From NCBI GenBank assembly GCA_017541825.1, contig JAFXYJ010000043.1:17154-81153 (forward strand): a DNA stretch of 64,000 nucleotides, in the 5' to 3' direction. Positions 27,466 through 57,943 of the stretch are shown in pieces. The stretch is from Oscillospiraceae bacterium. GTDB taxonomy: Bacteria; Bacillota; Clostridia; Oscillospirales; Oscillospiraceae. The translations under genes were made by a program, and so were the position numbers. Numbering within the stretch: position 1 is the stretch's first letter; the number at the start of each line of letters is the position of its first letter. The notes under the pieces were generated by a model. The model searched no databases and was not told the DNA's origin. It saw nothing but the letters and a program-made list of their open reading frames with translations.

Positions 27466-27486
27466 GAATGGCAACAATTGATTACG

Positions 27487-27668
27487 TTCGAGTGCCGTCA
27501 CTTCCCCGCGGGAAATGACGGAGAATAGGGAATCCGGTGCGAATCCGGAACGGTACCGCCACTGTGAGCGCGTTAGACCGTACATGCGGTGTGAGCCAGC
27601 CATTGGGGAGACCTGAGAAGGCGTTGTACGATTGAAGAGGCGTAAGTCAGGAGACCTGCTTGAACGGT
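27487..27668 (+). promoter_or_regulatory. Cobalamin (B12) riboswitch aptamer
   Basis: The conserved core reads AATAGGGAATCCGGTGCGAATCCGGAACGGTACCGCCACTGTGAGC, including the B12 box GCCACTG. The 3' element AGTCAGGAGACCTGC is also present. Both are hallmarks of the RF00174 class. I set the boundaries by eye. Confidence 0.85.
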
Positions 27669-27726
27669 CGGCTTCGTGTCTTCCGGGAATGAGGACTCTG
27701 AGCGCAATCTGTCACGCGGAAATACG

Positions 27727-35475: not shown

Positions 35476-36768
35476 CTACAGGTCCAGCGCGCAGAGGTCT
35501 TCCGCCGTTTCGCGCCGGACGACGACGCGCGCGCCGTCCGGGGAGAGCATGACCACCGGCGGGCGACCCAGCCGGTTGTAGTTGGAGGCCATGGAATAGT
35601 TGTAGGCGCCGGTGGTGCACACGCACACCAGATCGCCGCGGCGCACATCTGCGGGGAGCTCCACGGCGGGCTGCAGGACATCGCCGCTCTCGCAGCAGCG
35701 GCCCACAAGATCGAAGGTGTCGGTCCCGCCCTCCCGCTGGCCGTGGAGCACGGTGTAGCGCGCGTCGTAGAGGATGTAGCGCGGATTGTCGGCCATGCCG
35801 CCATCCACGATCACGTAGTTCTTGAAGCCGGGGATGTGCTTGACCGTGCTGACGGTGTATACCGTCATCCCGGCGTCGGCGACGATGCTCCGCCCCGGCT
35901 CCATCAGCACCCGGGGCATGGGAAGGCCGGTCTCCTTTATGCGTGCGCGCAGGTGAGCCGCCACGCCCGCGATCCGCGCGGGGATATCCGCCGCGGGGTC
36001 GCTGTCGACATAGCGTACGCCGTAGCCGCCGCCCAGATCCAGCTCCCGGGCGGTAAAGCCGTATTTCGCATGCAGAAAAGCCATGAACTCCACCATCACG
36101 TCCGAGGAGCGCTCGAACACGTCCTCGTCGAAGACCTCGGAGCCCACGTGACAGTGCAGGCCGGCCACGTCGATGCCGTCGGCGGACAGCGCGGCGCGCA
36201 CGAGGGCCTCGGCCTGCCCGGTCTGGATGGGCACGCCGAATTTGACGTCCACGGTGCCGGTATTCACGGCCTCGTAGGTGTGGGGATCGATGCCCGGGGT
36301 GATGCGCAGCAGCACCTTCTGACGCATGCCCCGCGCCTGCGTCTGCGCGGAGAGCGCGGCCAGATCGGTCTCGTTGTCCACCACAAAGCAGCCCACGCCG
36401 TGATCCAGGGCGTAACGGATGTCCTCGTCGGTCTTGGCGTCGCCGTGGTAATAGATCCGTTCGGCGGGGTATCCGACGGACAGCGCCGTATACAGCTCGC
36501 CCACGGACACAGCGTCCACGCCGATGCCCTCCTGTGCCATGATGCGGTAGATCTCCTTGAAGGCGGCGGCCTTCCCGGCGTAAAGGACGCCGGTGTCATC
36601 ACCGAAGCCCGCCAGAAAGGCGTTTTTATACATCCGGCAGTTGGCGCGGATGCGCTCCTCGTCCATCAGGTAGAGCGGCGTGCCGTATCGTTCCGCCAGC
36701 GCGTCGACGCTGTGCCCGGCAAAGCGGACGACGCCGCGTTCATCTCTTGCAATATTCGAGGACAGCAT
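35476..36768 (-). CDS. lysA: Diaminopimelate decarboxylase
   Basis: YGTPLYLMDEERIR near the N-terminus. PLP-fold motifs YAGKA, HCHVGS, DLGGGYGV and CESGD. Length 430 aa. Confidence 0.92.
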   Translation of the reverse strand: MLSSNIARDERGVVRFAGHSVDALAERYGTPLYLMDEERIRANCRMYKNAFLAGFGDDTGVLYAGKAAAFKEIYRIMAQEGIGVDAVSVGELYTALSVGYPAERIYYHGDAKTDEDIRYALDHGVGCFVVDNETDLAALSAQTQARGMRQKVLLRITPGIDPHTYEAVNTGTVDVKFGVPIQTGQAEALVRAALSADGIDVAGLHCHVGSEVFDEDVFERSSDVMVEFMAFLHAKYGFTARELDLGGGYGVRYVDSDPAADIPARIAGVAAHLRARIKETGLPMPRVLMEPGRSIVADAGMTVYTVSTVKHIPGFKNYVIVDGGMADNPRYILYDARYTVLHGQREGGTDTFDLVGRCCESGDVLQPAVELPADVRRGDLVCVCTTGAYNYSMASNYNRLGRPPVVMLSPDGARVVVRRETAEDLCALDL

Positions 36769-36804
36769 AAAACGGTGCTCCTTATTCGCTTAAAATGGAA
36801 GTTT

Positions 36805-36834
36805 ATTCTATCATCCGCATGCGTCGGATGTCAA
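36805..36834 (-). promoter_or_regulatory. Sigma-70-like promoter of the lysA operon
   Basis: Read on the minus strand: TTGACA (36834-36829), an 18-nt spacer, then TAGAAT (36810-36805). An AAGGAG RBS precedes the ATG. Confidence 0.55.
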
Positions 36835-36903
36835 CAGCCGCGCGGGGCATAACACGCCGGCTTCCCGTGCCCGCGGGGTGGATACATGTGTTTCACAGCG
36901 CAT

Positions 36904-36946
36904 AAAGGCAACACAGTGTTTCCATTGGAAACACTGTGTTGCCTTT
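36904..36946. promoter_or_regulatory. Perfect 20-bp-arm palindrome about 95 bp upstream of a sigma-54 promoter: candidate enhancer (UAS). Alternatively an orphan terminator-like hairpin
   Basis: AAAGGCAACACAGTGTTTCC-att-GGAAACACTGTGTTGCCTTT. A related motif set occurs upstream of the second sigma-54 promoter (40778-40846). Confidence 0.5.
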
Positions 36947-37019
36947 TTCACCGCGGCGGACCCTCCCGCAAAAGCGGCTGTCTGCGGTGTTTTTCTCTTT
37001 TTTTCGCCGACGGGAAAGC

Positions 37020-37035
37020 TGGCACAGGACTTGCA
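37020..37035 (+). promoter_or_regulatory. Sigma-54 (-24/-12) promoter upstream of etfB
   Basis: TGGCAC-aggac-TTGCA matches the TGGCAC-N5-TTGCW consensus exactly. It lies 67 nt before the etfB ATG. Confidence 0.75.
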
Positions 37036-37101
37036 TTCAGGCTGGGTAAGGGAGAAGATTCCCGTCCACTTCACACAGATGAAACATGGGAGGAAGCAGG
37101 T

Positions 37102-37908
37102 ATGAACATTTTGGTATGCGTCAAGCAGGTCCCGGACACGACTCAGGTGAAGATCGACCCTGTCACCAACACGCTGATCCGCGAAGGGGTACCTGCCATC
37201 GTCAACACCTTTGATGCCTTTGCCCTGGAGGCCGCGGCACGCATCAAGGACAAGGATCCGTCCACCCGGATCGTAGTGGTCTCCATGGGCCCCGAAAACG
37301 CGAAAAACGCTCTCAAGGAGTGCCTGGCCATCGCGGCGGACAAGGCCTATCTGCTGTCCGCGCGGGCCTTCGGCGGCTCCGACACCCTGGCCACCAGCTA
37401 CATCCTCTCCAACGCGGTGAAGAAGGTCGAGGAGTTCGAGGGACACTTCGACATGATCTTCTGCGGCAAGCAGGCCATCGACGGCGACACCGCCCAGGTC
37501 GGACCGGAGCTGGCGGAGCACCTGGGATATCCCCAGGTCACCTGCTGCCTGGAGGTGCTGGATTTCGATGACAAGCACCTTGAGGTCCTCAAGGAAGGCC
37601 AGGACGCCAATTCCGTCATCAGTGTCCGGTTCCCCTGCGTGACTACCTGGACCAAGCCCTCCTTCGACCCCCGGTTCCCCACCATCAAGCGCAAGCTGGC
37701 GGCCAACCGTGCGGAGATCCGCGTGTTCACCGACGAGGACTTCCCGGATATCGACCGGACTGCCATCGGCCTGAAGGGCTCCGCGACGCGGGTGAAGAAA
37801 TCCTTTGTCCCGGTGCGGAAAAAAGACGGCATGATCATTGCCGAGGACACGGTGGAGGCATCCGCCGCAAAGCTGGTCGCTCTTTTGAACGACGCGCATG
37901 TGATTTGA
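37102..37908 (+). CDS. etfB: Electron transfer flavoprotein beta subunit
   Basis: MNILVCVKQVPDT... and GKQAIDGDTAQVGPELAEHLG. Length 268 aa. The track start at 36886 is an extension. Confidence 0.92.
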   Translation: MNILVCVKQVPDTTQVKIDPVTNTLIREGVPAIVNTFDAFALEAAARIKDKDPSTRIVVVSMGPENAKNALKECLAIAADKAYLLSARAFGGSDTLATSYILSNAVKKVEEFEGHFDMIFCGKQAIDGDTAQVGPELAEHLGYPQVTCCLEVLDFDDKHLEVLKEGQDANSVISVRFPCVTTWTKPSFDPRFPTIKRKLAANRAEIRVFTDEDFPDIDRTAIGLKGSATRVKKSFVPVRKKDGMIIAEDTVEASAAKLVALLNDAHVI

Positions 37909-37923
37909 CAGGAGGGAAGAAAC

Positions 37924-38934
37924 ATGATCGCCAAGACCAAGGACCTTTGGGTATTTGTTGAAACGAGAGAAAACGGCACGGCGAAGAACGTCGGCCTTGA
38001 GCTGCTCAACCCCGGCCGCAGGCTGGCGGAAAAGCAGGGGGGCGCCCTGGTGGCGGTGGTGATCGGCCACAACACCGACGCCGCCGTGGAGGCCTGCGCC
38101 CGGCACGACGCCGATAAGATCCTCGTGGTGGACGGTCCCGAGTATGAGAGCTACACTACGGACGCCTACGCCAACGCCATGTATCATCTGGTGACCAAAT
38201 ACGGGCCCACCACCCTCGTGATCGGGGCCACGCCCAACGGACGCGACTTCGGTCCCCGGGTGTCCTGCCGGCTCAGGACCGGCCTGACGGCCGACTGCAC
38301 CGCCCTGGACGTGGATGAGGAGAGCGGCAACATCGCCTGGACCCGCCCGGCCTTCGGAGGCAACCTGATGGCCACGATCCTGTGCGCCGAGGCCCGTCCC
38401 CAGATCGGCACCGTCCGTCCCGGCGTGTTCAAGAAGGCGCCGGAGACCGAGCCTCACGCCGAGATCATCCGCGAGGACTACCATGTCCCAGAGGAGGATA
38501 TCCGCACCAGGCTGCTTCGGGAGATCCACGACGCCGCCGAGGAGATCGTCGATCTCGAGGGCGCGGACATCATCGTTTCCGGCGGCCGCGGCGTCGGCGG
38601 CCCGGAGGGCTTCGCCACCCATATCAAGCCTCTGGCCGACGCGCTGGGCGCCACTGTCGGCGCGTCCCGCGCAGCCGTGGACTCCGGCTGGATCAGCCAT
38701 GCCCACCAGGTCGGCCAGACCGGCAAGACCGTGGCCCCGAAGCTGTATATCGCCTGCGGCATCTCCGGCGCGATCCAGCACCAGGCCGGCATGAGCGGCT
38801 CGGACTGCATCGTCGCCATCAACAAAGACCCCGACGCGCCTATTTTTGAGATCGCGCACTACGGCATCGTCGGCAACCTGTTCGAGGTGCTGCCGCTGCT
38901 GACCGCCGAGGTGCTCAAGCTCAAGGCCGAATAA
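37924..38934 (+). CDS. etfA: Electron transfer flavoprotein alpha subunit
   Basis: 336 aa. The C-terminal FAD-binding region reads IVSGGRGVG...GASRAAVDSGW...QVGQTGKTVAPKLYIACGISGAIQH. Confidence 0.92.
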   Translation: MIAKTKDLWVFVETRENGTAKNVGLELLNPGRRLAEKQGGALVAVVIGHNTDAAVEACARHDADKILVVDGPEYESYTTDAYANAMYHLVTKYGPTTLVIGATPNGRDFGPRVSCRLRTGLTADCTALDVDEESGNIAWTRPAFGGNLMATILCAEARPQIGTVRPGVFKKAPETEPHAEIIREDYHVPEEDIRTRLLREIHDAAEEIVDLEGADIIVSGGRGVGGPEGFATHIKPLADALGATVGASRAAVDSGWISHAHQVGQTGKTVAPKLYIACGISGAIQHQAGMSGSDCIVAINKDPDAPIFEIAHYGIVGNLFEVLPLLTAEVLKLKAE

Positions 38935-38948
38935 CATCTCCTTTGCAC

Positions 38949-38980
38949 GGCGTCCGCGGAGACAGGTCTCCGCGGACGCC
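38949..38980 (+). other. GC-rich stem-loop after etfA (possible weak terminator or processing site)
   Basis: GGCGTCCGCGGAGAC / GTCTCCGCGGACGCC are perfectly complementary arms. The U-tract is poor. Confidence 0.4.
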
Positions 38981-39023: not shown

Positions 39024-39692
39024 ATGGAACTGAAAACGGCCATTATGGAGCGCCATTCCACCCGCGGCTTTTCCGACCGGCCCGTCTCCCGGGAGACGCT
39101 CAGGGATGTCCTGACCATGGCGGAGCGCGCCGTGTCCTCCGTCAACTGCCAGCCCTGGGAATTTGCCGTCGTCACCGGCGACGTGCTCCGGACGCTGTGC
39201 GCGGAGATCACCGAGTGCTTCGAACGCGGTGACCCCGCGGACATCACGCCCTGGTTCGGAGAGGGGATCTACCGCAGCCGCCGCAGTGAGATCGGGAAGC
39301 AGCTCTTCGCCGCGATGGACATCTGCCGGGAAGACCGGGAAAAACGCCGCTGGTGGACTGCCCGGGGCTACCGCTTTTTTGACGCGCCTGCGGCCATCCT
39401 GCTGATGATGGACAATTCGGCGGATGAGTTTTCCTGCCGGCTGGATATGGGCTGCGTGATCCAGAACATCTGCCTGGCGTCGATGGAGTTCGGCCTGGGG
39501 ACCTGCGTGGAGTACCAAGGCGTGTCCTATCTCGAGCCGCTGCGCCGAAACCTGCCCGCTTCCCAGGGCAAACGCTTCGTCTGCGCCATTGCCATCGGGT
39601 ACCCGGACGAGAGCTTTCCCGCCAACCGCGTCGTGTCCTCCCGGGCCGACGTGGACGAGATCACGTCCTGGTACGGTTTTGATGAGGAATAA
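39024..39692 (+). CDS. Nitroreductase-family flavoprotein
   Basis: Starts MELKTAIMERHSTRGFSDRPVSRETL...NCQPWEF, a typical nitroreductase N-terminus. Length 222 aa. Confidence 0.8.
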   Translation: MELKTAIMERHSTRGFSDRPVSRETLRDVLTMAERAVSSVNCQPWEFAVVTGDVLRTLCAEITECFERGDPADITPWFGEGIYRSRRSEIGKQLFAAMDICREDREKRRWWTARGYRFFDAPAAILLMMDNSADEFSCRLDMGCVIQNICLASMEFGLGTCVEYQGVSYLEPLRRNLPASQGKRFVCAIAIGYPDESFPANRVVSSRADVDEITSWYGFDEE

Positions 39693-39728
39693 CTTCCGTG
39701 CGCCGCGGCGCAGATCGGAGGCGATGAG

Positions 39729-40712
39729 ATGATCGAAGAAATTGGAACGGGGATCTATCGCATAGGCGTCCCGCTGCCGGACAATCCGCTCCGGGAGCTC
39801 AACAGCTACTTTCTCCGGGGGACCGACCGGGACCTGCTCATCGACACCGGATTCCGGAATCCCGTGTGCCAGAGCGCGCTGGAGGAGGGACTGCGGACGC
39901 TGGAGTCCGACCCCGCGCGGCGGGATGTGCTGCTCACGCATCTGCACTCCGACCACTCCGGGAACGCCGATCTGTTCGCGCTTCCCGGCCGGCATGTGTA
40001 TCTGAGCGGCACGGACCTCGGTTATCTGCGCCAATTCCGCAGCGGAGCGATCCTGGAGCGCCAGCGCGCCCGCTACCTCGCGGAGGGCATGCCGTCAGCG
40101 CTGGAAAAGGAGATCAGCGCCGTGAACCCGGCGGACAACCAGGCCATCGAGCAGATCACCGATCAGTTCGTCCCCCTGCGGGACGGCGATGTGATCTCCG
40201 TGGGAGACCTGTCCCTGGAGACCGTGCTGGTGCCGGGCCACACCCCGGGGAACACGGTCTTCCTTTGCCGGAGGCAGGGGATCCTTTTCAGCGGTGATCA
40301 CATCCTCTTCGACATCACGCCCAACATCACCGCATGGGACGGCGTGGAGGATTCGCTGGGGGATTACCTGGACAACCTGAACCGGATCCGGGATCTGCCG
40401 GTAAAGCAGACGCTGCCGGGACACCGCGGACCCGGAGAGTTCCGCCCCCGGGTGGACGAGCTGCTGCGGCACCACCGCAGACGGCTGAACGAGGCCCGGC
40501 GGATCGTGGAGGAAAACCCCGGTCTGAACGCCTTTGAGATCACCGCGCAGATGACCTGGCAGATCCGTGCCCGCAGCTGGGATGATTTTCCCATCACGCA
40601 GAAATGGTTCGCCATGGGCGAGTGCATGTCCCATCTGGACTATCTCCGCCGCCGCGGCCTGATCCGCCGGGAGGAGTTCGGCGGCATGCGCCGTTATTAC
40701 GCCTCGCTGTGA
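39729..40712 (+). CDS. MBL-fold metallo-hydrolase
   Basis: Contains the HxHxDH motif in LTHLHSDHSGN, and later VPGHTPG. Length 327 aa. Confidence 0.8.
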   Translation: MIEEIGTGIYRIGVPLPDNPLRELNSYFLRGTDRDLLIDTGFRNPVCQSALEEGLRTLESDPARRDVLLTHLHSDHSGNADLFALPGRHVYLSGTDLGYLRQFRSGAILERQRARYLAEGMPSALEKEISAVNPADNQAIEQITDQFVPLRDGDVISVGDLSLETVLVPGHTPGNTVFLCRRQGILFSGDHILFDITPNITAWDGVEDSLGDYLDNLNRIRDLPVKQTLPGHRGPGEFRPRVDELLRHHRRRLNEARRIVEENPGLNAFEITAQMTWQIRARSWDDFPITQKWFAMGECMSHLDYLRRRGLIRREEFGGMRRYYASL

Positions 40713-40777: not shown

Positions 40778-40846
40778 AAAGGTAACACATTGGCACACAT
40801 GTACCCGCATATGCCCGGGGATTTGTTACCATTTCCGCATGGAAAC
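40778..40846. promoter_or_regulatory. Candidate enhancer (UAS) elements upstream of the second sigma-54 promoter
   Basis: AAAGGTAACACA (40778-40789), the inverted partner TGTTACC (40824-40830), and the palindrome ATTTCC-GCAT-GGAAAC (40831-40846). These resemble the arms and centre of the 36904-36946 palindrome. Confidence 0.45.
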
Positions 40847-40891
40847 GGAGCGAAAGCACGGAAAATGTCACAATTTAAAGGTTAATCAAGT

Positions 40892-40907
40892 TGGCACAAA
40901 GTATGCA
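40892..40907 (+). promoter_or_regulatory. Sigma-54 (-24/-12) promoter upstream of the GntP/CoA-pathway operon
   Basis: TGGCAC-aaagt-ATGCA. The GG and GC dinucleotides are correctly spaced. It lies about 187 nt before the ATG at 41094. Confidence 0.7.
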
Positions 40908-41093: not shown

Positions 41094-42416
41094 ATGACTT
41101 CTGCAGAGATTCTCAGTTTAATCGGTGTCATCGTCGCTCTGGGCGGACTGGCGTTCTTCGTACTGAAGGGTGTGAACAACTATCTGATGGCCTTCATCGC
41201 CACGGTGCTGATCGCCATCACCAGCGGACTGAACATTTATGAGACGCTGGTCAAGACTTATATGGGCGGCTTCACCGGCTACATCGCCCAGTGGTTCATC
41301 GTATTCTATGCCGGCGCGCTGTTCGGCAAGCTGATGGCGGACTGCGGCGCGGCGGAGACCGTCGCCCACGGCCTGGTCAAGCTCGTCGGCAAAAAGCTGG
41401 CGCCCTGCGCTCCTATCATTGCCGGCGCCGTCATGGGCTACGGCGGCATCACCACCTTCGTCATCGGCTTCTGCGTGGTGCCTATCGCGGTGCAGATCTT
41501 CCGCGACGCGAACCTGCCCCGCCGGCTGATCCCCGGCGCCATCTTCATCGGCCCCACCATCGCCATGGTCGCCCCGGGCTCGCCCCAGATCGCGAACATC
41601 GTCTGCTCCACCGCCTGCAACACGAACTACATGGGCGGCGGCCTTGCCGGCTGGATCGCGGACCTGGTCTTCGGCCTGGGCACCGTCTGCGTGCTCTTCC
41701 TGTGGATGATCAAGCGCGCCGTGGCCAAGGGTGAGTACTTCATCCCGAAGGATGTGGACAATGTCACCTCTGACAGTGACAGCAGGGAGCGTCCGGGCAT
41801 GCTCACCAGCATCCTGCCGCTGCTGATCACCGTCGTGGCCATCAACATCCCCAACGGCCAGGGCGGGAACCTGATCCCCACCGAGTACGGCCTGCTCCTC
41901 GGCTGCCTGTCCATCATCCTGCTGAACCTGAAGTTCTTTGACAAAAAGGCCATCGTCCCCGCGCTGGGCGACGGCTTCAAGACCGCCATCACCATCATCG
42001 GCAACACCGCCGCCATCGTCGGTATCGGCGCGGTGGTCAAGGCCACCCCGATGTTCGGCCCTGTGGTCGAGAGACTGACCTCCGGCACCGGCAATCCCTA
42101 CGTGGGCGGCGCGGTCTCCATCGCCCTGCTGGCCGGCATCCTGGGCAGCGCTTCCGGCTCCACCAGCCTCGGCGCTCCTCTGCTGGCTCCCGCCTTCATC
42201 GCGCAGGGTGCTGATCCCGGCATGCTGGCCCGCGTCATGTGCATGGCCTCCTCCACGCTGGACTCCCTGCCCCACAGCGGTGCCGTCGTATCCACCATCG
42301 ACGCCATGTGCCACGAGGAGTACAAGGGCTCTTACGGCTGCGTGTTTATGCTGACGGTTGTCGGCACCACGGTCATGACCCTGTCCGCCATCATCATGGC
42401 GATGCTCTTCTATTGA
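41094..42416 (+). CDS. GntP-family anion:H+ permease (paralog 1)
   Basis: 440 aa, polytopic. Collinear with the second copy at 43343. Confidence 0.8.
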   Translation: MTSAEILSLIGVIVALGGLAFFVLKGVNNYLMAFIATVLIAITSGLNIYETLVKTYMGGFTGYIAQWFIVFYAGALFGKLMADCGAAETVAHGLVKLVGKKLAPCAPIIAGAVMGYGGITTFVIGFCVVPIAVQIFRDANLPRRLIPGAIFIGPTIAMVAPGSPQIANIVCSTACNTNYMGGGLAGWIADLVFGLGTVCVLFLWMIKRAVAKGEYFIPKDVDNVTSDSDSRERPGMLTSILPLLITVVAINIPNGQGGNLIPTEYGLLLGCLSIILLNLKFFDKKAIVPALGDGFKTAITIIGNTAAIVGIGAVVKATPMFGPVVERLTSGTGNPYVGGAVSIALLAGILGSASGSTSLGAPLLAPAFIAQGADPGMLARVMCMASSTLDSLPHSGAVVSTIDAMCHEEYKGSYGCVFMLTVVGTTVMTLSAIIMAMLFY

Positions 42417-42478
42417 TCTGACCGGGCAGCGAAGCGTCACAGTCAGCATTTTCAGAACCTTTTAAGGAGGGTATCTCA

Positions 42479-43276
42479 TTGTCCAAGGATTATCTGAACG
42501 AGGCGTATCAGGATGTGATCCTGGAGGTCAGGGGGCGCATCGCTTATGTGACCCTGAACCGTCCCCACAAGCTGAATGCCATGACTATGAATACCAAGGG
42601 CGAGATCGTCCGGATCTTTCAGGGTCTGGATCAGGACCCGGACGTCTGGGGCGTGATCGTCACCGGCGCAGGCAAGAGCTTCAACGTGGGCTCCGACGTC
42701 AGCCACCATCCCGCCAGCTGCGAGGAGGCGTTTGACGAGATTACCTTTTCCCAGAACGTCCTCAATACGATCGAGAAATGCAGCAAGCCCGTGATCGCGG
42801 CCATCAACGGCTACTGCCTGGGCGGCGGCATCGAGCTGGCCCTTGTGTGCGACCTGCGGATCGCCAGCGAAAAGGCCTCCTTCGGTCTGCCGGAGGCGAA
42901 GCTGGGCGTGATCCCTTCCTACGGCGGCACCCAGCGTCTGACCCGGCTGTGCGGCGCGGCCCTGGCCAAGGACCTGTGCTTCACCTGCCGGAGGATGCCC
43001 GCCGACGAGGCGCTCAGCTGGCATCTGATCAACCGTCTCGTGCCCCATGAGCAGCTGATGGACGAGGCAACGAAGTATATGGAAGAGATCCTCGCCAACG
43101 CGCCGATCGCCCTCAAGTACTGCAAGTACAGCATCAACAACGGCGCGGAGATCAGCCTGGAGAAAGGGCTGGAGATCGAGAAGCTGAGCTTCGCCATGTG
43201 CATCGCGTCCGAGGACTGCGCCGAGGGCATGGCCGCTTTCGCGGAAAAGCGCGAGCCTCAGTTCAAGAACCGCTGA
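42479..43276 (+). CDS. Enoyl-CoA hydratase/isomerase (crotonase) family protein 1
   Basis: VTLNRPHKLNAM, ITGAGKSFNVGSD, INGYCLGGGIELAL and a C-terminal AEGMAAFAEKREPQFKN. TTG start with an AAGGAGG RBS. Confidence 0.85.
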   Translation: MSKDYLNEAYQDVILEVRGRIAYVTLNRPHKLNAMTMNTKGEIVRIFQGLDQDPDVWGVIVTGAGKSFNVGSDVSHHPASCEEAFDEITFSQNVLNTIEKCSKPVIAAINGYCLGGGIELALVCDLRIASEKASFGLPEAKLGVIPSYGGTQRLTRLCGAALAKDLCFTCRRMPADEALSWHLINRLVPHEQLMDEATKYMEEILANAPIALKYCKYSINNGAEISLEKGLEIEKLSFAMCIASEDCAEGMAAFAEKREPQFKNR

Positions 43277-43342
43277 TACCGGCACGCCGGATCCCCGGAT
43301 CGAGAGAATAAAGAAACAAATCCATAAAACGGAGGGAGAAAA

Positions 43343-44650
43343 ATGTCAATCACGACGATCAGTCTGCTGGGCATCATACTGGGCCTGGCCTGTCTGGTGT
43401 TCTTTTCCTTCAAGGGCCTGAACATCTACCTCAACTCGTTCCTGTTCGTTTTCATCGTCGCGCTGACGGGCGGCCTTGATATCTACAAGACCTTCGTCAC
43501 CACCTACATCGGCGGCTTCACGGGCTTCATCACCGGCAACTTCTTCGTGTTCGTGGCCGGCACCGTGATGGGCCAGTGCGCGCTGATCACCGGCGCAGCA
43601 AAATCCATCGCCAACGGCATCGTCAAGGCCTTCGGCAAGAAGGGCGCCCTGCTGGCAGTGCCCATCGCCTGCCTGGTGCTGTCCTACGGCGGCGTCTCTG
43701 CCTTCGTGGTCGGCTTCACCGTGTTCCCCATCGCCCTGGAGGTCTTCCGCAACAACGACGCCCCCCGCCGCCTGATCATCAGCGGCATCTGCTTCGGCGG
43801 TGCCACCGTGGCCATGTGCGGCCCCGGCGCGCCTCAGGTCCAGAACAGCATCCCCGCCAACGCCTGCGGCGTGAGCCTGATGGCCGGCTCCGTCTGCGGC
43901 TTCATCGGCTGCGCGGTGACCCTTGTCGTGGGCTACACCTGGTATATGTACATGATCAAGCGCGCCATGGCCCGTGGCGAGCACTTCGTGGCCAAGGACG
44001 GCGACTTCTCCGACAAGACCGAGGAGAACATCCCGCCCTTCATCACCTCCATCATCCCGCTGATCGTGACCCTGATCCTCATCAACACCATCCTGCCGCT
44101 GGAAGTCGGTGTCGTCTTCGGCGCGCTGCTGATGGTCGTCATGAACATCAAGTACTACCCCACCTGGAAGACCGAGTTCCTGCCTGAGATGGGCAAGGCC
44201 GTCGCCAACGCGCTGATGTTCATCGGCAGCGTCGCGGCCATCGCCGGCGTCGGCGGCGTCGTCAAGGCGACCCCGGGCTTTGAGGCCGTTGTCTCCTTCC
44301 TCGACACCGCATCTCTGGGCAACCCGCTGATCGGCGCCTCCGTGGGCACCATGATCCTCTGCGGCATCACCGCCTCCGCCTCCGGCGGCCTGGGCATCGC
44401 CGCGCCGATCCTGTCCGAGATGTACGCCGGCCAGGTCAGCATGGCGGCGCTGTCCCGTATCATGTCCATGGCCTCCATCACCTTTGACTCCATGCCCCAC
44501 AGCGGCGGCATCGCGGCGAACATCTACGGCATCGGCCGTGAGACCCACAAGACCGCTTACATCCCCATCATGAACCTGTGTCTGTGGACACCCTGCGTAG
44601 GCCTGGCGGTCTCGCTGATCCTGTTTACACTCTTCCCCAATCTCCCGTGA
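43343..44650 (+). CDS. GntP-family anion:H+ permease (paralog 2)
   Basis: 435 aa. Same topology and shared motifs with 41094..42416, for example PRRLI, DS(L/M)PHSG. Confidence 0.8.
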   Translation: MSITTISLLGIILGLACLVFFSFKGLNIYLNSFLFVFIVALTGGLDIYKTFVTTYIGGFTGFITGNFFVFVAGTVMGQCALITGAAKSIANGIVKAFGKKGALLAVPIACLVLSYGGVSAFVVGFTVFPIALEVFRNNDAPRRLIISGICFGGATVAMCGPGAPQVQNSIPANACGVSLMAGSVCGFIGCAVTLVVGYTWYMYMIKRAMARGEHFVAKDGDFSDKTEENIPPFITSIIPLIVTLILINTILPLEVGVVFGALLMVVMNIKYYPTWKTEFLPEMGKAVANALMFIGSVAAIAGVGGVVKATPGFEAVVSFLDTASLGNPLIGASVGTMILCGITASASGGLGIAAPILSEMYAGQVSMAALSRIMSMASITFDSMPHSGGIAANIYGIGRETHKTAYIPIMNLCLWTPCVGLAVSLILFTLFPNLP

Positions 44651-44815
44651 TCCGTCTGCGCGCTGCAGGGCTCGTGACGGAATGCGGCGGCGGAGCACAG
44701 CCATGACGATTGTACCGACCGTATGACCGACGCTCCGCCTCTTTTTCGCTGACAGTCAGCCGCGGGACGGGAGACCCGCCCCGCGGCGAGTAATAACCCA
44801 AGGAGGAAATGACTT

Positions 44816-45952
44816 ATGGATTTCAGACTGACGGAAGATCAGGAATCCATTCGAGAGCTGGCGGCAAAGTTTGCCAAAGAGGTATGCGCCCCGGAGGTAG
44901 AGACCATCGAGGCCGAGCACCGTTTCCCCATCGAGACCTTCCGTAAGTTTTCCGAGGTGGGTCTCTATTCCGTGAACTTCGACGAGGAGTACGGCGGCAT
45001 CGGCAAGGACGCCCTGGCCGAGGTGATCGTGGTGGAGGAGCTGACCAAGGCCAGTCTCAGCCATGCGGCGGCCTTTCAGATCAACCGCGCCTGCGCGGGA
45101 CTGATCGATGAGGTGGGCAGCCCCGAGCAGAAGGCAAAATATCTGCCCTGGATGATCGAGAACGGCATTCCCGGCTCCGTGTGCATCACCGAATCCGGTG
45201 CGGGCTCCGACGCCGCTTCGATGCGCACGATGGCGGTGCGGGACGGCGACGACTGGATCCTCAACGGCACCAAGTGCTTCATCACCGGCGCGGGCGTCTC
45301 CGAGCTGTATATCGTCTGCGCGCAGACGGACCGCGAGCTGGGCGCCAAGGGCATCACGCTGTTTATCGTCGATCCGTCCACCCCCGGCTTCTCCATCGGC
45401 AAGATCGAAAACAAGATGGGCCTGGTGGGCTCGCAGACCGGCGAGGTGATCCTGCAGGATGTCCGCGTGCCCGGTGAAAACGTGCTCGGCGAGGTCGGCA
45501 AGGGCTTCAAATACGTCATGGCCAATCTGGACGGAGCCCGTATCGGCACCGCGGCCCAGGGCCTGGGCACCGCGGAGGCGGCGCTGGACCTGGCGATCAA
45601 GTATTCCAAGGAGCGGGTACAGTTCGGGCGCCCCATCAGCAAATTCCAGGGCATCCAGTGGTATCTGGCGGAAATGGCCACCAAGGTGGATTCCGCAAAG
45701 TGGATGATCTATCACGCGGCCTGGCTCAAGAACGAGGGGCTGCCTTTCAGCAAGGAAGCCGCCATGGCCAAGCTCTACGGCACCACCATCGGCCGGGAGG
45801 TCGTCAACACCGCGCTGCAGATCCACGGCGGCTACGGATACATGAAGGACTATCCCCTGGAGCGCATGTACCGTGACGTCCGGATCACGGAGATCTACGA
45901 GGGCACCTCGGAGATCCAGAAGGTGGTCATCGCCGGGCAGCTGCTCCGGTGA
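44816..45952 (+). CDS. Acyl-CoA dehydrogenase family flavoprotein 1
   Basis: 378 aa. Contains ITE(S/P)GAGSDA, GTKCFITGAG, QIHGGYGYMKDYPLERMYRDVRITEIYEGTSEIQ. Confidence 0.9.
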   Translation: MDFRLTEDQESIRELAAKFAKEVCAPEVETIEAEHRFPIETFRKFSEVGLYSVNFDEEYGGIGKDALAEVIVVEELTKASLSHAAAFQINRACAGLIDEVGSPEQKAKYLPWMIENGIPGSVCITESGAGSDAASMRTMAVRDGDDWILNGTKCFITGAGVSELYIVCAQTDRELGAKGITLFIVDPSTPGFSIGKIENKMGLVGSQTGEVILQDVRVPGENVLGEVGKGFKYVMANLDGARIGTAAQGLGTAEAALDLAIKYSKERVQFGRPISKFQGIQWYLAEMATKVDSAKWMIYHAAWLKNEGLPFSKEAAMAKLYGTTIGREVVNTALQIHGGYGYMKDYPLERMYRDVRITEIYEGTSEIQKVVIAGQLLR

Positions 45953-46008
45953 TCAACAGGAGCCGGCGAAAGCCGGTGCAGGATTATTGACAAGGAGGAT
46001 AATGAATT

Positions 46009-47247
46009 ATGGGTAAAGGCGTACTGAGCGGCGTGCGCGTACTGGAATACGACTCCTACGCTGCCAGCAACAACGTGGGCAAGGTGCTGGCTCTCTGGGG
46101 CGCGGAGGTCATCAAGGCCGAACCGCTCACCGGCGACGTGTTCCGTCATATGGGCCAGAACAATAATGTCCCCATCGACGAGGACGAAAACCCCGCTTTC
46201 CAGCTGGTGGCCTCCAACAAGAAGAGCGTCACCATCGACACGAAGACCCCCGAGGGCTACGATCTGCTGATGAAGCTGCTGGAGACCTGCGACGTGTTCC
46301 TCACCAACGTCCGCATGCCCTCTCTGAAGAAAAACAAGCTGGACTGGGAGACCATCCATGCGAAATATCCCGACAAGGTCTACTGCCACGTCTCCGGCTG
46401 GGGCCTCAAGGGACCCCAGGCGGCCGAAGCCGGCTATGACACGGTCTGTTACTGGGCCGTCTCCGGCGCCATGGTGGACCTGGCCCCCGCGGGCGGCCCC
46501 CCGCTGCCCCCGAGCTTCGGCGTAGGCGACCAGCACATCGGCGCCTATGGCGCCGGCGGCATCGCGGCTGCGCTCTACAAGAAAGAAAAGACCGGCGAGG
46601 GCGAGTTCGTCTCCGCGTCCCTGATGGGCGTCTCCGCCCTGGGCCACGGCATGATGACTACCTTCTGCCAGAACGCCTTCCGTGACCGCGGACTGGGCGA
46701 GAAGTATCCCCGCGGCCATTTCGATCCCACCCTGCCGACCTTCAACGCCTACAAGTGCAAGGACGGCGAGTGGCTGATGCTGACCGTCAACGAGTACACC
46801 AAGTACCTGCCGAAATTCTGCGAGGTCTTCGGCATCTCCGATATCGTACTCAGCAATCCCAACTTCAACAGCGAGGTGGAGATCCACAAACCCGAGAACA
46901 TGAAAGCCATGGTCGAGATCCTGGACGACGTGTTCATCAAGTACACCAGCGACGAGGCCCTGAAGATGATGATCGACAACGACATGGTCGCCTCCAAGTA
47001 TCCCCACTTCTCGGACTTCGCGGTCAACGAGCAGGCCCACGCCAACGGCTACTTCGAGTACTACACCTCGCCCAACGGCCAGACGGCCTCCTATCCCGCC
47101 AACCCCATCACCTTCAACAACGGCGAGGACAACCTCAATCTGGCGCCGTTCCCCAAGCTGGGCGAGCACAACGAGGAGGTCTTCCACAGCCTCGGCCTCA
47201 GCGACGAGCAGATGGCCGAGCTCCGCGCCAAAAAGGTCATCAGCTGA
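46009..47247 (+). CDS. Family III (CaiB/BaiF/Frc-type) CoA-transferase 1
   Basis: GVRVLEYDSYAASNNVGKVLALWGAEVIKAEP, CDVFLTNVR and GVGDQHIG. Length 412 aa. Confidence 0.88.
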   Translation: MGKGVLSGVRVLEYDSYAASNNVGKVLALWGAEVIKAEPLTGDVFRHMGQNNNVPIDEDENPAFQLVASNKKSVTIDTKTPEGYDLLMKLLETCDVFLTNVRMPSLKKNKLDWETIHAKYPDKVYCHVSGWGLKGPQAAEAGYDTVCYWAVSGAMVDLAPAGGPPLPPSFGVGDQHIGAYGAGGIAAALYKKEKTGEGEFVSASLMGVSALGHGMMTTFCQNAFRDRGLGEKYPRGHFDPTLPTFNAYKCKDGEWLMLTVNEYTKYLPKFCEVFGISDIVLSNPNFNSEVEIHKPENMKAMVEILDDVFIKYTSDEALKMMIDNDMVASKYPHFSDFAVNEQAHANGYFEYYTSPNGQTASYPANPITFNNGEDNLNLAPFPKLGEHNEEVFHSLGLSDEQMAELRAKKVIS

Positions 47248-47311
47248 GCGCCCCGCGCCGGAGAGCGCAAAAAGAATACAGAATCTAAAGTAAAGGAGCA
47301 GCTTCCGTACC

Positions 47312-48556
47312 ATGCAGGAAAGAAAAAAGGGTATGTTGGCCGGCGTGCGCGTGCTGGAGTATTCCTCCTATGCCGCGTGCTCCAATGTGGGCAAATTGCT
47401 GGGCCTCTGGGGAGCAGAGGTCATCAAGGTCGAGCCCCCCGGGGGAGAGATATTCCGTGTCATGGGCACGCTGACCAATCTGCCCATTACACCGGAGGAG
47501 AACCCGGCGTTCCAGCTTTGCAATTCCAACAAAAAAGGCGTGACCATCAATACCAAGACCCCTGAGGGAAAAGCGCTGTTCCACAAGCTCCTGGCGTCCT
47601 GCGATGTGTTTCTCACCAATGTCCGCATGGCCTCTCTGATCAAAAACGGCTTTGGATGGGAAGAGCTGCACGAAAAATACCCCGCGCTTGTCTACTGCCA
47701 CATCTCCGGCTGGGGCCTCAAAGGGCCCCAGGCCGGAGAGTCCGGCTTCGACACCGCCTGCTATTGGGCCGTGTCCGGCGCGCTGGCGGACCTGGCGCCC
47801 GCCGGCGGACCGCCGATCCCGCCCTCCTACGGCGTGGGCGACCAGCACATGGCGGTGTACGGGGCGGCCGGCATCTGCGCGGCGCTGTTCCACCGCGCCA
47901 TGACGGGGGAGGGCTCGTTCGCCGCGCCGTCGCTGCTGGGCGTAGGCGCCCAGGGCCACGGCATGATGACCACCTACTGTCAGAAGCCGTATCAGGAACA
48001 GGGACTGGGCATGCGCTATCCCATCGGTCATTTCAACCCCTCGTATCCGACGTTCAATTCCTATCAGTGCAGCGACGGGGAGTGGGTCATGATCACGATC
48101 ACGGAGTATGCCGAAAAGCTTCCCAAATTCTGCGAGGTCTTCGGCATCCCCGCGTCGGTCTACACCGATCCCCGCTTCAGCACCGTGGAGGAAGTCCAGA
48201 AGCCGGAGAACCTTCGCGCCATGGTGGAGCATATCGACGCCGCCATCGGCCGCTATACCTCCCGGGAGGTGGTGGAGATGATGACGGCGGCGGACATGGT
48301 GGCCACCACCTATGTCCACTTCACGGACTTCGCGGAGAACGAGCAGGCCCACATCAACGGCAACTTCGAGTACTTCACCTTTGAAAACGGACACACGGTA
48401 TCCTTCCCGGCCAACCCGGTGCTGTTCAACGGCGGCGAGGACAACTATCACCTGACCCCGGCCCCGAAGCCCGGGGAGCACAACGAGGAAGTCTTCACCG
48501 CCCTGGGCTATGCTCCGGAAGAGCTTGAGAGACTCCGGGAAGCGAAGATCATATAG
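47312..48556 (+). CDS. Family III (CaiB/BaiF/Frc-type) CoA-transferase 2 (adjacent paralog)
   Basis: Collinear with the preceding gene along its full length (GVRVLEYSSYAA..., CDVFLTNVR, GVGDQHMA). Roughly half or more of the residues are identical by eye. Confidence 0.88.
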   Translation: MQERKKGMLAGVRVLEYSSYAACSNVGKLLGLWGAEVIKVEPPGGEIFRVMGTLTNLPITPEENPAFQLCNSNKKGVTINTKTPEGKALFHKLLASCDVFLTNVRMASLIKNGFGWEELHEKYPALVYCHISGWGLKGPQAGESGFDTACYWAVSGALADLAPAGGPPIPPSYGVGDQHMAVYGAAGICAALFHRAMTGEGSFAAPSLLGVGAQGHGMMTTYCQKPYQEQGLGMRYPIGHFNPSYPTFNSYQCSDGEWVMITITEYAEKLPKFCEVFGIPASVYTDPRFSTVEEVQKPENLRAMVEHIDAAIGRYTSREVVEMMTAADMVATTYVHFTDFAENEQAHINGNFEYFTFENGHTVSFPANPVLFNGGEDNYHLTPAPKPGEHNEEVFTALGYAPEELERLREAKII

Positions 48557-48585
48557 CAGCATTTTTGCGCAAGGAGAGAATGTGA

Positions 48586-49365
48586 ATGGAATACCACGGT
48601 CTGATCTTTGAAAAGCAGGACAAAGTGGGCGTGATCTATCTGAACCGCCCGGAAAAGCTCAATGCGATCGACACGCCCACTCAGGAGGCGCTGGTACAGC
48701 TCATCGCCGATATCGAAAAGGACCCCGAGCTCAGATGCATTATCCTGACCGGCGTCGGACGCGCCTTCTGCGCCGGCGGCGACATCGGCGAGGAATCCGA
48801 GAAAACGGTCCTCTCGGGCTATGATTTCTCGGTGCTCGGCCATGCCATGACCAACGCGCTGGCCAACTGCAGGCTGCCCATCATCGCCGCCATCAACGGC
48901 TATGCGCTGGGCGGCGGCCTGGAATATGCACTGGCCTGCGATTTCCGCTATGCGGCCTCCACCGCCAAGATCGGCGCTCCCGAGAGCAACCTGGGCGTGA
49001 TTCCCGGCGCCGGCGGCACCCAGCGGCTGTCCCGGCTGGTGGGCGTGACCAAGGCCAAGGAAATGATTTACACCGGACGCAAGTATACGGCCGAGCAGTG
49101 CCTGGCCATCGGTCTGGTGGACAAGGTGTGCGAGCCGGAGAAGCTGATGGAGGAGGCCATGGCTTTTGCGCAGGAGATCGCCGAGCGGGCGCCCATTTCC
49201 ATCCGCATCGCAAAATTCGCCATTGACAAGGGCATCAATCTGGATCTTCCCAGCAGCCTGGATCTGGAGGCGACGCTCTACGGCCTGATCCACAGCACTT
49301 ATGACGCCAAGGAGGGACTCAACGCCTTCCTGGAGAAGAGACCGGCCAAATTTGAGGGCAGATAA
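48586..49365 (+). CDS. Enoyl-CoA hydratase/isomerase (crotonase) family protein 2
   Basis: [39 protein letters not shown] and [17 protein letters not shown]. Confidence 0.88.
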
Positions 49366-49398
49366 TCCACCGTTTTTTCAAAAAAGGAGACCGACAAT

Positions 49399-50535
49399 AT
49401 GCAGTATCAATTTCTGACGGAGGATCAGCGCGGGTTGATCGAAATGATCCGCGATTTCGGGAAGAAGGAGGTCCAGCCCTATCAGTCCGAGTGGGATGAC
49501 AAGGGGATCTTCCCGAAGGAGGCGGTGGAACACGCCTTTGAGCTGGGCTTCCATGTGCTGGACGTCCCCGAGGAGTACGGCGGGCCCGGCCTGGATTACC
49601 TGACCACGATGATGTGCGTGGAGGAGATCAACCGCTCCTGCACCGCCATCGCCCCAACCATCATCGGCGCGAGCATCGCGGCCAAGCTCGTGGAGCTCGG
49701 CGGGACCCCGGAGCAGAAGCAGTATTTTTACGACCGGGTCCTCAACGGCGCCTATACCGGCATGAGCATCACGGAGCCCGGTGCGGGCTCGGACGCGGCT
49801 TCCATGCGTACCATGGCGGTCCGGGACGGGGACGAGTACGTCCTCAACGGCACAAAATGCTTTGCGTCCAACGGCGGCATCGCCGAGATGATGGTGGTCT
49901 TCGCCGTCACCGACAAGGGCAAGCGGTCCCACGGCATCTCCGCCTTCATCGTGGAGACGGACCGGCCGGGCTATATCGTCGGCAAGGAGGAGAACAAGCT
50001 GGGCTTCCGCTGCTCCAACACCGTAGGCATCACCTTTGACGACTGCCGGATCCCCGCCTCGAACCTGATCGGCGTGGAGAACGAGGGCTTCCGTCTGACC
50101 ATGCAGACGCTGGACCGCGGCCGCGTCAAGGTCGGCGCGTCTGCGGTGGGCTATGCCCAGGCGGCCATCGACTACGCCACCGAGTATGCCAAGACCCGCG
50201 AACAGTTCGGCAAGCGCATCTGCGATTTCGAGGGCATCCAGTTCATGCTGGCGGATATGGAGGCCGGGACCGAGGCGGCCCGCCAGGCGGTGTATTACGC
50301 CGCCCGTCTCATCGACGCGGGGCTCCCGAGCTCCCGCGCGGCGGCGATCGCCAAGCTCATCGCCACGGACAACGCCATGAAGGTGACCACGGATGCGGTC
50401 CAGATCTTCGGCGGCTACGGCCTGTGCAAGGACTATCCCGTGGAGATGCTCTTCCGTGACGCCAAGGTCCTGCAGATCGTCGAGGGCACCAACCAGATCC
50501 AGAGAATGATCATCGGCCGGGATATGTGCCGCTGA
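49399..50535 (+). CDS. Acyl-CoA dehydrogenase family flavoprotein 2
   Basis: 378 aa. Contains ITEPGAGSDA, GTKCFASNGG, QIFGGYGLCKDYPVEMLFRDAKVLQIVEGTNQIQ. Confidence 0.9.
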   Translation: MQYQFLTEDQRGLIEMIRDFGKKEVQPYQSEWDDKGIFPKEAVEHAFELGFHVLDVPEEYGGPGLDYLTTMMCVEEINRSCTAIAPTIIGASIAAKLVELGGTPEQKQYFYDRVLNGAYTGMSITEPGAGSDAASMRTMAVRDGDEYVLNGTKCFASNGGIAEMMVVFAVTDKGKRSHGISAFIVETDRPGYIVGKEENKLGFRCSNTVGITFDDCRIPASNLIGVENEGFRLTMQTLDRGRVKVGASAVGYAQAAIDYATEYAKTREQFGKRICDFEGIQFMLADMEAGTEAARQAVYYAARLIDAGLPSSRAAAIAKLIATDNAMKVTTDAVQIFGGYGLCKDYPVEMLFRDAKVLQIVEGTNQIQRMIIGRDMCR

Positions 50536-50629
50536 TCCCCATGGGCTCCGCCCGGCCGGACGGAGCCCGTTTGGGCGAAGGACCTGTCCGGCCCTTCGCC
50601 CGTCACAATTTCAGAAGGTGAGGATAGGT

Positions 50630-51475: not shown

Positions 51476-51490
51476 TGGTTCACACGCAAT

Positions 51491-51521
51491 GCCCGCCGGG
51501 AGAGCTTTTCTCCCGGCGGGC
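51491..51521 (+). other. Strong stem-loop between the MaoC and ligase genes, followed by a TATAAT hexamer
   Basis: GCCCGCCGGGAGA-gcttt-TCTCCCGGCGGGC forms a 13-bp perfect stem. TATAAT lies at 51530-51535. There is no U-tract. Confidence 0.45.
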
Positions 51522-51588
51522 GGGCATGCTATAATGGACAGAGAATAAACGGCTTCCCCGCGCAGACTGCGGCAAATCAGATCGCGAG

Positions 51589-53526: not shown

Positions 53527-53561
53527 TCGCAGAAAAGACATCAGAGAGGGATGAGAAAAAC

Positions 53562-54779: not shown

Positions 54780-54921
54780 TACCGGGCCGACGAACAAAAG
54801 GTCTCCATCGGGTGTCAGCATTCCGGCTGTTTGATCGATATTGATTATCGGCGTAAAAGCACAAAACCGACAGGGTACGCCGCCAAAGGGCAGGAACCGC
54901 TGTTTTCTTTTGCCGGAAGTG

Positions 54922-54930
54922 TGGTATGAT
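54922..54930 (+). promoter_or_regulatory. Possible extended -10 promoter element for the regulator gene
   Basis: TGGTATGAT (TGn + TATGAT) lies 33 nt before the ATG at 54963. No convincing -35. Confidence 0.3.
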
Positions 54931-54962
54931 AGAGTTATCCCATGACAGGAGGTGCTGACACG

Positions 54963-57887: not shown

Positions 57888-57907
57888 TCGACGACCCGCA
57901 TATAAAA

Positions 57908-57943
57908 GAGGCTGCCGCAAATGTTCTGCGGCAGCCTCTTTTT
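57908..57943 (+). terminator. Intrinsic terminator ending the island
   Basis: 12-bp stem GAGGCTGCCGCA / TGCGGCAGCCTC with a 7-nt loop, followed by TTTTT. Confidence 0.8.

Follow-up and report, generated by a model that had tools for sequence, protein, structure and literature searches.

The window, the whole 64,000-nucleotide stretch of DNA that was analysed (C98:17154-81153), belongs to a genome assembly of 2.48 Mb with 62.6% GC in 167 contigs. It contains a sigma-54 promoter, designated P1, and downstream of it 17 co-oriented genes forming an acyl-CoA pathway cluster of about 20 kb, whose gene order ends with a bEBP gene and then a FabK/NMO-like reductase gene. The cluster has the following features.

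37102-38934, plus strand: etfB (37102-37908) and etfA (37924-38934); Pfam ETF and ETF_alpha
38949-38980, plus strand: GC-rich hairpin with perfect 15-bp arms and no T-run after it, between etfA and the nitroreductase gene
39024-40712, plus strand: nitroreductase-family gene (39024-39692) and MBL-fold hydrolase gene (39729-40712); Pfam
40781-40848, no strand: half-sites before P2, namely GGTAACAC at 40781, TTGTTACC at 40823 and GGAAACGG at 40841
40892-40907, plus strand: second sigma-54-like promoter, P2, TGGCAC-AAAGT-ATGCA, with 1 mismatch
41094-54779, plus strand: pathway genes, from a permease to an MFS transporter; Pfam and NCBIfam
54963-56915, plus strand: one-component bEBP of 650 aa; Sigma54_activat (PF00158, 2.6e-66), AAA_lid_14 and HTH_8
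56949-57887, plus strand: FabK/NMO-like enoyl reductase gene; Pfam/NCBIfam
57904-57942: bidirectional terminator-like hairpin after the reductase gene; repeat search

The start of the nitroreductase/MBL region gene was taken from the gene calls in L183, a strain-level copy of the locus. The genes at 41094-54779 encode, in this order, a GntP-like permease, an enoyl-CoA hydratase, a GntP-like permease, an acyl-CoA dehydrogenase, two family III CoA-transferases, an enoyl-CoA hydratase, an acyl-CoA dehydrogenase, a MaoC hydratase, an AMP-dependent CoA ligase and an MFS transporter, and they are syntenic, with 72-95% amino-acid identity, in two other loci (L094 and L194).

P2 lies within a 380-bp gap, 186 nt before the GntP-like permease gene, and would serve the downstream part of the cluster, with transcription predicted to start near 40918. 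The half-sites preceding it are dispersed, at 108.5, 66.5 and 48.5 bp from its GG, and the canonical 17-bp unit described below is not formed upstream of P2. Orthologous clusters lack P2, and the matching gap there measures only 44-140 bp.

Promoter P1 and the sigma-54 machinery

The region between etfB and its divergent neighbour contains the following features.

35476-36768, minus strand: lysA, diaminopimelate decarboxylase; Pfam Orn_Arg_deC_N and Orn_DAP_Arg_deC; TIGR01048, 414 bits against a cut-off of 297.9
36805-36834, minus strand: sigma-70-type promoter of lysA, TTGACA-18-TAGAAT with a TG extension; 11 of 12 positions in the scan
36904-36946, no strand: perfect 43-bp palindrome, proposed tandem UAS; read from the sequence
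36907-36923, no strand: proposed UAS unit 1, GGCAACAC-A-GTGTTTCC, a 17-bp dyad with its centre at 36915, 106 bp from the -24 GG
36927-36943, no strand: proposed UAS unit 2, GGAAACAC-T-GTGTTGCC, with its centre at 36935, 86 bp from the GG
36990-37004, plus strand: T5 and T7 tracts between the proposed UAS and P1; read from the sequence
37020-37035, plus strand: sigma-54 promoter P1, TGGCAC-AGGAC-TTGCA; GG at 37021-37022, GC at 37033-37034
37088-37096, plus strand: ribosome-binding site of etfB, GGGAGGAAG

The original prediction of an exact sigma-54 consensus upstream of etfB was confirmed. The string at 37020-37035, TGGCACAGGACTTGCA, has no mismatch to TGGCAC-N5-TTGCW, its GG and GC are exactly 10 bp apart, and it is intergenic and correctly oriented, 66 nt before the etfB ATG at 37102; its transcription start site is predicted near 37046. 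A scan of positions 36400-37300 found no sigma-70-like promoter on the plus strand; its one hit of this type was the minus-strand promoter of lysA. Strings with at most one mismatch occurred twice in the 64-kb window, compared with 0.98 expected, and exact matches five times in the genome, compared with about two expected from a composition estimate. The promoter string by itself is weak evidence, and it is the placement that gives it significance: four of the five exact matches are intergenic, correctly oriented and located 60-110 nt before acyl-CoA-pathway genes.

The identity of lysA, its divergent orientation and the lack of a plus-strand gene before the palindrome were likewise borne out, with a TIGR01048 match and a minus-strand sigma-70 promoter of its own. 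This promoter is about 70 bp from the palindrome and directed away from it, and no co-oriented gene ends at the palindrome on either strand. lysA is a divergent neighbour that lies outside the regulated unit.

An rpoN gene, on which the original prediction depends, was found at C74:3993-5366. It encodes the one complete RpoN of the genome, a protein of 455-458 aa containing the AID, CBD and DBD domains (PF00309, PF04963 and PF04552). True bEBPs number only two in the genome, one encoded on contig C6, with a GAYTGA variant loop, and the other at 54963-56915 of the window. The latter had been named as a bEBP from the outset, and it has Walker A (GESGVGKD), GAFTGA (at residue 409), Walker B (FLDEIGD) and HTH_8, so that the activator is also complete. 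No domain was assigned to its N-terminal region of about 320 aa, which is followed by the AAA+ domain and a Fis-type HTH. With SRKTLYRWL, its recognition helix has a sequence generic for the family, and the protein sequence therefore gives no tie to a particular DNA motif.

The palindrome, its dyads and their conservation

The palindrome at 36904-36946 reads AAAGGCAACACAGTGTTTCC-ATT-GGAAACACTGTGTTGCCTTT; the repeat search reported it as arms of 21 nt, 100% complementary, with 1 nt between them. Its position had been predicted at about 95 bp upstream of the promoter, and its centre at 36925 is indeed 95-96 bp from the -24 element. A perfect palindrome with 20-bp arms far exceeds chance. Each arm is itself a near-palindrome, with seven of eight pairs, and takes the form of a 17-bp dyad, GGnAACA-N3-TGTTnCC, centred at 36915 in one arm and at 36935 in the other. 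Unit 2 is the exact reverse complement of unit 1, and the two centres are 20 bp, or about two helical turns, apart.

The dyad is unique in the genome. The pattern GGNAACANNNTGTTNCC occurred twice in 2.48 Mb, both times in the palindrome, compared with 0.1 occurrences expected, and the palindrome is the sole place in the genome where at least three GGNAACAC half-sites are clustered. In 1.56 Mb of fetched loci, the same pattern was found at orthologous cluster heads only. No further copies of the palindrome were detected in the genome: searching with one arm and up to three mismatches returned the arm itself and two weak chance matches, and a DNA search of the genome returned only the self-match. 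A palindrome at C106:2571 that has the core AAACACAGTGTTT in common was judged coincidental; it sits among unrelated hairpins between convergent genes. An Rfam search of the region returned no RNA family match.

Protein-collection searches that used the bEBP and nitroreductase as queries identified two independent orthologous clusters only, both in metagenome assemblies. In one of them (L094/L082), the bEBP is 83% identical and the pathway proteins are 72-95% identical, with 93-94% for GntP1 and ECH1; this cluster has no etfBA, its first gene being that of the nitroreductase. In the other (L185/L194/L187), where etfBA is present and the MBL gene is missing, the bEBP is 648 aa long, with about 69% identity. 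The bEBP gene stands at the end of both orthologous clusters as their sole regulator gene, and it is the only regulator gene conserved across all three clusters, that of the window included. The upstream neighbours differ: the cluster of the window adjoins lysA, that of L094 adjoins TRAP transporter and LarA-like genes, and that of L194 adjoins an NlpC/P60 gene.

Each orthologous cluster head has a sigma-54 promoter (AGGCAT-GTGAA-TTGCT in L094, with its GG at 4350; TGGCAC-GCTAA-TTGCG in L185, at 3147-3162), and upstream of each promoter lies the 17-bp unit, as GGAAACAG-A-GTGTTACC in L094 and as GGAAACAG-A-TTGTTTCC in L185. The dyad thus stays with the cluster despite the different upstream neighbours. 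Its distance to the -24 GG is 107 bp in L094 and 158 bp in L194, compared with 106 and 86 bp for the two units of the window. The centres of the half-sites lie at the following distances from the -24 GG.

Window: 110.5, 101.5, 90.5 and 81.5 bp (four half-sites)
L094: 111.5, 102.5 and 91.5 bp (three matching positions, each 1 bp further)
L194: 162.5 and 153.5 bp (unit moved by 52 bp, about five helical turns)

Either the position or the helical phase of the dyad is therefore conserved in the orthologues. In L194, 13 bp rather than 3 bp separate the unit from the next half-site, which amounts to one additional helical turn. This next half-site corresponds to the promoter-distal half of unit 2, GGAAACAC (36927-36934), which is kept in both L094 and L194 as GGTAACAC; the other half of unit 2, GTGTTGCC (36936-36943), is not conserved in either. 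In a three-way alignment of 326 columns, a block of 42 columns (about 13%) that spans the dyad and the next half-site contains 21 of the 53 invariant columns, and conservation is sparse outside it; this footprint rests on three lineages, that is, three independent orthologous promoters. In L094 and L185, the corresponding stretch between dyad and promoter is AT-rich or carries a T-tract, and the T5/T7 tracts of the window could possibly form an intrinsic bend that aids DNA looping.

Other loci did not contribute to the footprint. The strain-level copies L183 and L184 are 99% identical, and their changes in the palindrome, ATT to GAT in the loop and one extra T, do not discriminate between the readings considered below. 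Forty related genomes contained neither an orthologue of the bEBP nor a match to the intergenic DNA, and their lysA neighbourhoods are not syntenic, so that the borders of the island are undefinable; the lysA upstream regions of same-genus genomes lack the dyad. In a GTDB scan of 80 loci anchored on EtfB, the closest EtfBs (80-81% identity) stood in unrelated contexts with no sigma-54 promoter. A sigma-54-like promoter does precede etfB in seven loci with more distant EtfBs (L005, L008, L010, L011, L013, L061 and L081), but their clusters are non-orthologous, and they show recurrence, not a footprint. Two EtfB homologues from a set of 5.8 billion proteins (P0241 and P0242) belong to other pathways, in 2-hydroxyacyl-CoA dehydratase and SSF transporter contexts. 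A metagenome scan anchored on the nitroreductase returned human-gut matches of 59% identity in ACAD/etfBA-nitroreductase clusters, which are non-orthologous and whose EtfB is only 40% identical, and the distant bEBP homologues P0004 and P0005 lie on short contigs with neither promoter nor dyad.

The orthologous clusters also bear on whether, as originally claimed, the Etf pair is dedicated to the inducible pathway rather than to housekeeping metabolism. This claim was upheld in part: a second etfBA pair on contig C74 speaks for it, and the L094 cluster without etfBA, together with the occurrence of the closest EtfB relatives in many unrelated pathways, speaks against it. Since the orthologous promoter of L094 is followed by a cluster without etfBA, the Etf pair looks like an exchangeable module behind the promoter.

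A second site of similar design was found in the same genome. Contig C90 carries a perfect palindrome of 44 bp, AACACAACTTGTGTCATA-N8-TATGACACAAGTTGTGTT, with an exact sigma-54 promoter on either side, the two promoters being divergent. Each of its arms holds the dyad ACACAA-N-TTGTGT, and its centre is 95.5 bp from the plus-strand promoter. The promoter adjoining the bEBP gene on contig C6 is preceded by the related sequence TGTGTC-N12-GACACA. The genes at the C90 and C6 sites encode an enoyl-CoA hydratase, a CaiB-type transferase, a permease, an AMP ligase and an acyl-CoA dehydrogenase, and the C90 promoters are presumed to be targets of the C6 bEBP. The target design of this second bEBP matches the layout of the palindrome and P1, for which it would be an internal analogue.

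Interpretation and alternative explanations

Together, these results indicate that the palindrome is most likely a pair of UAS for the cluster's own bEBP, with the genuine sigma-54 promoter of the etfBA-led operon about 100 bp downstream. The functional unit would be the 17-bp dyad, present twice, and not the 43-bp palindrome as such. It is inferred that the bEBP binds the dyads, senses an inducer and activates P1 through DNA looping. In such a mechanism, a dimer of the bEBP encoded at 54963-56915 would bind each dyad through its C-terminal Fis-type HTH, and detection of a pathway substrate by the N-terminal sensor region of 320 aa would allow the adjacent dimers to nucleate an AAA+ oligomer. 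The intervening DNA, with its T5 and T7 tracts, would then loop, the GAFTGA loops would contact RpoN in the closed complex, and ATP hydrolysis would open the promoter at the start site predicted near 37046. The perfect 43-bp symmetry appears to be a lineage-specific elaboration, in which the proximal site repeats the conserved distal site exactly, in inverted orientation; as a matter of speculation, it may have originated by inverted duplication or by template-switch 'correction' of a quasi-palindrome.

The original prediction preferred an enhancer to a terminator. An RNA hairpin, acting as an intrinsic or bidirectional terminator or as an insulator against stray transcription between the divergent lysA and etf genes, would account for the very stable stem that the palindrome forms on both strands (-36.5 kcal/mol, z = -7.1, on the plus strand, where none of 200 shuffles was as stable; -39.3 kcal/mol, z = -8.8, on the other strand) and for the TTTTT that follows on the plus strand, which adjoins the stem only if the stem is trimmed back to its GCC end. 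However, there is no upstream co-oriented gene end for a terminator to serve on either strand, as lysA starts at 36768 and its promoter fires away from the palindrome; the terminator consensus scan did not call the hairpin. Upstream of the sigma-54 promoters of the two orthologous clusters the 17-bp dyad is kept, whereas the strong hairpin and T-run are not: L094 and L185 fold at -22.5 and -22.9 kcal/mol (z = -2.4 and -3.7) into small, differently arranged stems with no T-run. Conservation of the dyad without the hairpin or the flanks argues for a protein-binding dyad and not an RNA stem. Furthermore, the dyad symmetry inside each arm is left unexplained by an RNA stem, which has no need of it, and is needed by a pair of dimer sites, which favours dimer binding. 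A hairpin as the explanation of the palindrome is thus quite unlikely and the choice of an enhancer is supported, while the TTTTT after the hairpin on the plus strand means that the palindrome may have a secondary role as RNA.

If the dyads are bound by protein, they could be operators of a different DNA-binding protein, such as a repressor encoded elsewhere or a regulator of lysA, given that many dimeric regulators typically recognise 17-bp palindromes and that the dyads, in the intergenic region shared by the two divergent units, are 70-130 bp away from the lysA -35 element. This is an unlikely reading, because the dyad and the sigma-54 promoter travel with the cluster where the neighbour is not lysA, the same-genus lysA upstream regions do not have the dyad, the three clusters conserve no further regulator gene, and the dyad keeps its distance or helical phase relative to the -24 element. 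It is highly improbable that the palindrome is a repeat, the end of a mobile element or a recombination site at the edge of a horizontally acquired island. The patchy distribution of the cluster would fit such an origin, as would the absence of a bEBP orthologue and of matching intergenic DNA from the 40 related genomes and the location of the palindrome near the left edge of the cluster, but it is present in a single genome copy with no relatives at up to three mismatches per arm, it has no partner at the other end of the cluster, where the hairpin at 57904-57942 is unrelated in sequence, and the dyad-to-promoter spacing stays fixed where the flanks of the loci differ.

A low probability is given to two further possibilities, in which the exact 43-bp symmetry would be more than incidental. 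The palindrome might be a two-level element, in which a tandem bEBP enhancer in the duplex is combined with a cruciform or transcribed hairpin that insulates lysA from etf or modulates access of the activator, or it might represent a newborn second activator site, made by template-switch 'correction' around a single ancestral dyad. If the latter were true, a mechanism by which enhancer sites multiply would be directly observable.

Relation to known systems and significance

The reading of the palindrome as a UAS pair can be compared with the NtrC enhancer of Escherichia coli glnAp2, which consists of two adjacent 17-bp dyads of 7-N3-7 geometry situated about 100-140 bp before a GG-N10-GC promoter. 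The dyads, spaced about 32 bp from one another, are each bound by a dimer via a Fis-type HTH, and the dimers jointly nucleate the active oligomer of NtrC, a phosphorylated response regulator. The 7-N3-7 dyad geometry, the two adjacent sites and the GG-N10-GC promoter are shared by the locus in the window. It differs in that its bEBP has neither a receiver domain nor an adjacent kinase, in the sequence of the sites, in their spacing of 20 bp, and in that the two sites are exact inverted copies that make up one perfect palindrome.

In its pathway genes, the cluster resembles the caffeate-reduction operon carABCDE of Acetobacterium woodii and the acryloyl-CoA reductase AcrABC of Clostridium propionicum, with a family III CoA-transferase, an AMP-dependent CoA ligase, an ACAD-type enoyl-CoA reductase and a dedicated EtfBA. 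The best or near-best NCBIfam scores of ACAD1, EtfB and EtfA were to Acr models, those of the Etf pair being to EtfB and acryloyl-CoA reductase Etf subunits; all of these lie below the equivalog cut-offs (533 vs 640, 217 vs 475 and 364 vs 600), and the likeness concerns the pathway, not the promoter or the UAS.

The closest regulatory parallels come from the reconstruction of sigma-54 regulons in 57 Clostridiales species by Nie et al. 2019 (PMC6615313). In that study, UAS sites were mostly located 100-250 bp upstream of the promoter, several sites were present in 32 of the 39 EBP groups, and site spacings of about 20 bp occurred, as for the YctR sites at -322 and -302 (PMC6615313). Control of crt-gntT-caiB-bcd-etfAB-type operons by sigma-54 and a bEBP, with several tandem UAS, has already been published for Clostridiales (PMC6615313). 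Like the cluster described here, the regulons of that study have a one-component Fis-HTH EBP encoded beside or within the gene cluster and a first gene preceded, at 45-105 nt, by a TTGGCA-N-TTGC promoter (PMC6615313). They also share palindromic UAS that stand upstream in tandem, in twos or threes and some of them about 20 bp apart, and the regulation of genes for enoyl-CoA hydratase, GntP permease, CaiB-type CoA-transferase, acyl-CoA dehydrogenase and EtfAB (PMC6615313). The candidate motif of the window, GGnAACA-N3-TGTTnCC, differs from the published UAS motifs, which are TTCTCAAAAATGAGAC for YctR, TGTACGGAATAACGAACA for XcgR and TGTA-N-TACA for CrbR (PMC6615313). The sites of the window are 86-106 bp from the promoter, compared with 140-240 bp calculated from the published table, and they are exact inverted copies of each other; the cluster of 17 genes is far larger and has a second internal sigma-54 promoter, and the host is a high-GC Oscillospiraceae-like MAG outside the published study (PMC6615313). 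The promoter-proximal unit, at 86 bp, is slightly nearer to its promoter than the typical 100-250 bp (PMC6615313).

In conclusion, the specific UAS motif proposed here is new, the kind of regulation is already known, and nothing unexpected is added on the mechanism of sigma-54 enhancers. GGnAACA-N3-TGTTnCC is a testable candidate motif for a family of one-component sigma-54 activators in gut or fermenter Clostridia. The regulatory unit would delimit an inducible acyl-CoA/Etf pathway of 17 genes, and the pair of promoter and UAS would offer a ready reporter for an inducer search. The presence of two paralogous bEBP systems in one genome, each predicted to act over acyl-CoA genes of its own, suggests that sigma-54 may be dedicated to such pathways in this organism.

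Additional elements within the window

Further features were identified in the window:

40892-40907, sigma-54-like promoter TGGCAC-AAAGT-ATGCA, ahead of the first GntP-like permease gene
38949-38980, GC-rich hairpin, GGCGTCCGCGGAGAC-AG-GTCTCCGCGGACGCC, whose 15-bp arms pair perfectly, between etfA and the nitroreductase gene
27473-27677, cobalamin riboswitch (RF00174, 101 bits)

Upstream of the promoter ahead of the permease gene, three dispersed half-sites (GGTAACAC, TTGTTACC and GGAAACGG) were found at 40778-40848, with no full 17-bp dyad unit of the kind that composes the window palindrome. A counterpart of this promoter is absent from both orthologous metagenomic clusters, in which the corresponding gap is only 44-140 bp. 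The hairpin between etfA and the nitroreductase gene is not followed by a T-run and may serve to stabilise or process the mRNA; its position appears to be the junction of the etfBA insertion, relative to the orthologous cluster without etfBA (L094). The riboswitch, which was the sole Rfam match within the window, is unrelated to the promoter and palindrome.

The 163-bp gap upstream of the bEBP gene (window 54779-54962) contains an extended -10-like element, TGGTATGAT, which suggests that the activator is transcribed separately from a sigma-70 promoter, probably constitutively.

Sigma-54-like promoters ahead of etfB in other genomes

Elements matching TGGCAY-N5-TTGCT with one or two mismatches were located approximately 60-110 nt directly ahead of etfB at seven loci (L005, L008, L010, L011, L013, L061 and L081), which belong to Lachnospiraceae and other Clostridia and differ in gene context; at L081, the gene immediately upstream encodes a bEBP. 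The occurrence of such promoters before etfB in several differing loci indicates that etfBA under predicted sigma-54 control is a recurrent arrangement.

Palindromes, promoters and a second etfBA pair elsewhere in the genome

What looks like a second sigma-54 regulon was detected outside the window in the same genome (C90:25482-25747 and C6:4423-4590). On contig C90, a 44-bp perfect palindrome, composed of two ACACAA-N-TTGTGT dyads, lies between two divergent exact sigma-54 promoters, and on contig C6 a related element, TGTGTC-N12-GACACA, adjoins the gene for a paralogous bEBP with a GAYTGA loop. The genes of this putative regulon, encoding an ECH, a CaiB-type transferase, a permease, an AMP ligase and an ACAD, are paralogues of the window pathway genes. 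Approximately 11 different short hairpins follow one another between convergent genes in an intergenic region of another contig (C106:2380-2790), and one of these, TTTTCCATAAAACACAGTGTTTTATGGAAAA, has the core AAACACAGTGTTT in common with the window palindrome, which is probably a coincidence.

The genome also carries a second etfBA pair:

C74:8-1282, second etfBA pair, at the extreme start of the contig

The rpoN gene (C74:3993-5366) is on the same contig. Because C6 ends within an acyl-CoA dehydrogenase gene located after a sigma-54 promoter and C74 begins with etfBA, the two contigs might be neighbours in the genome, in which case the Etf pair on C74 would be sigma-54-dependent as well.
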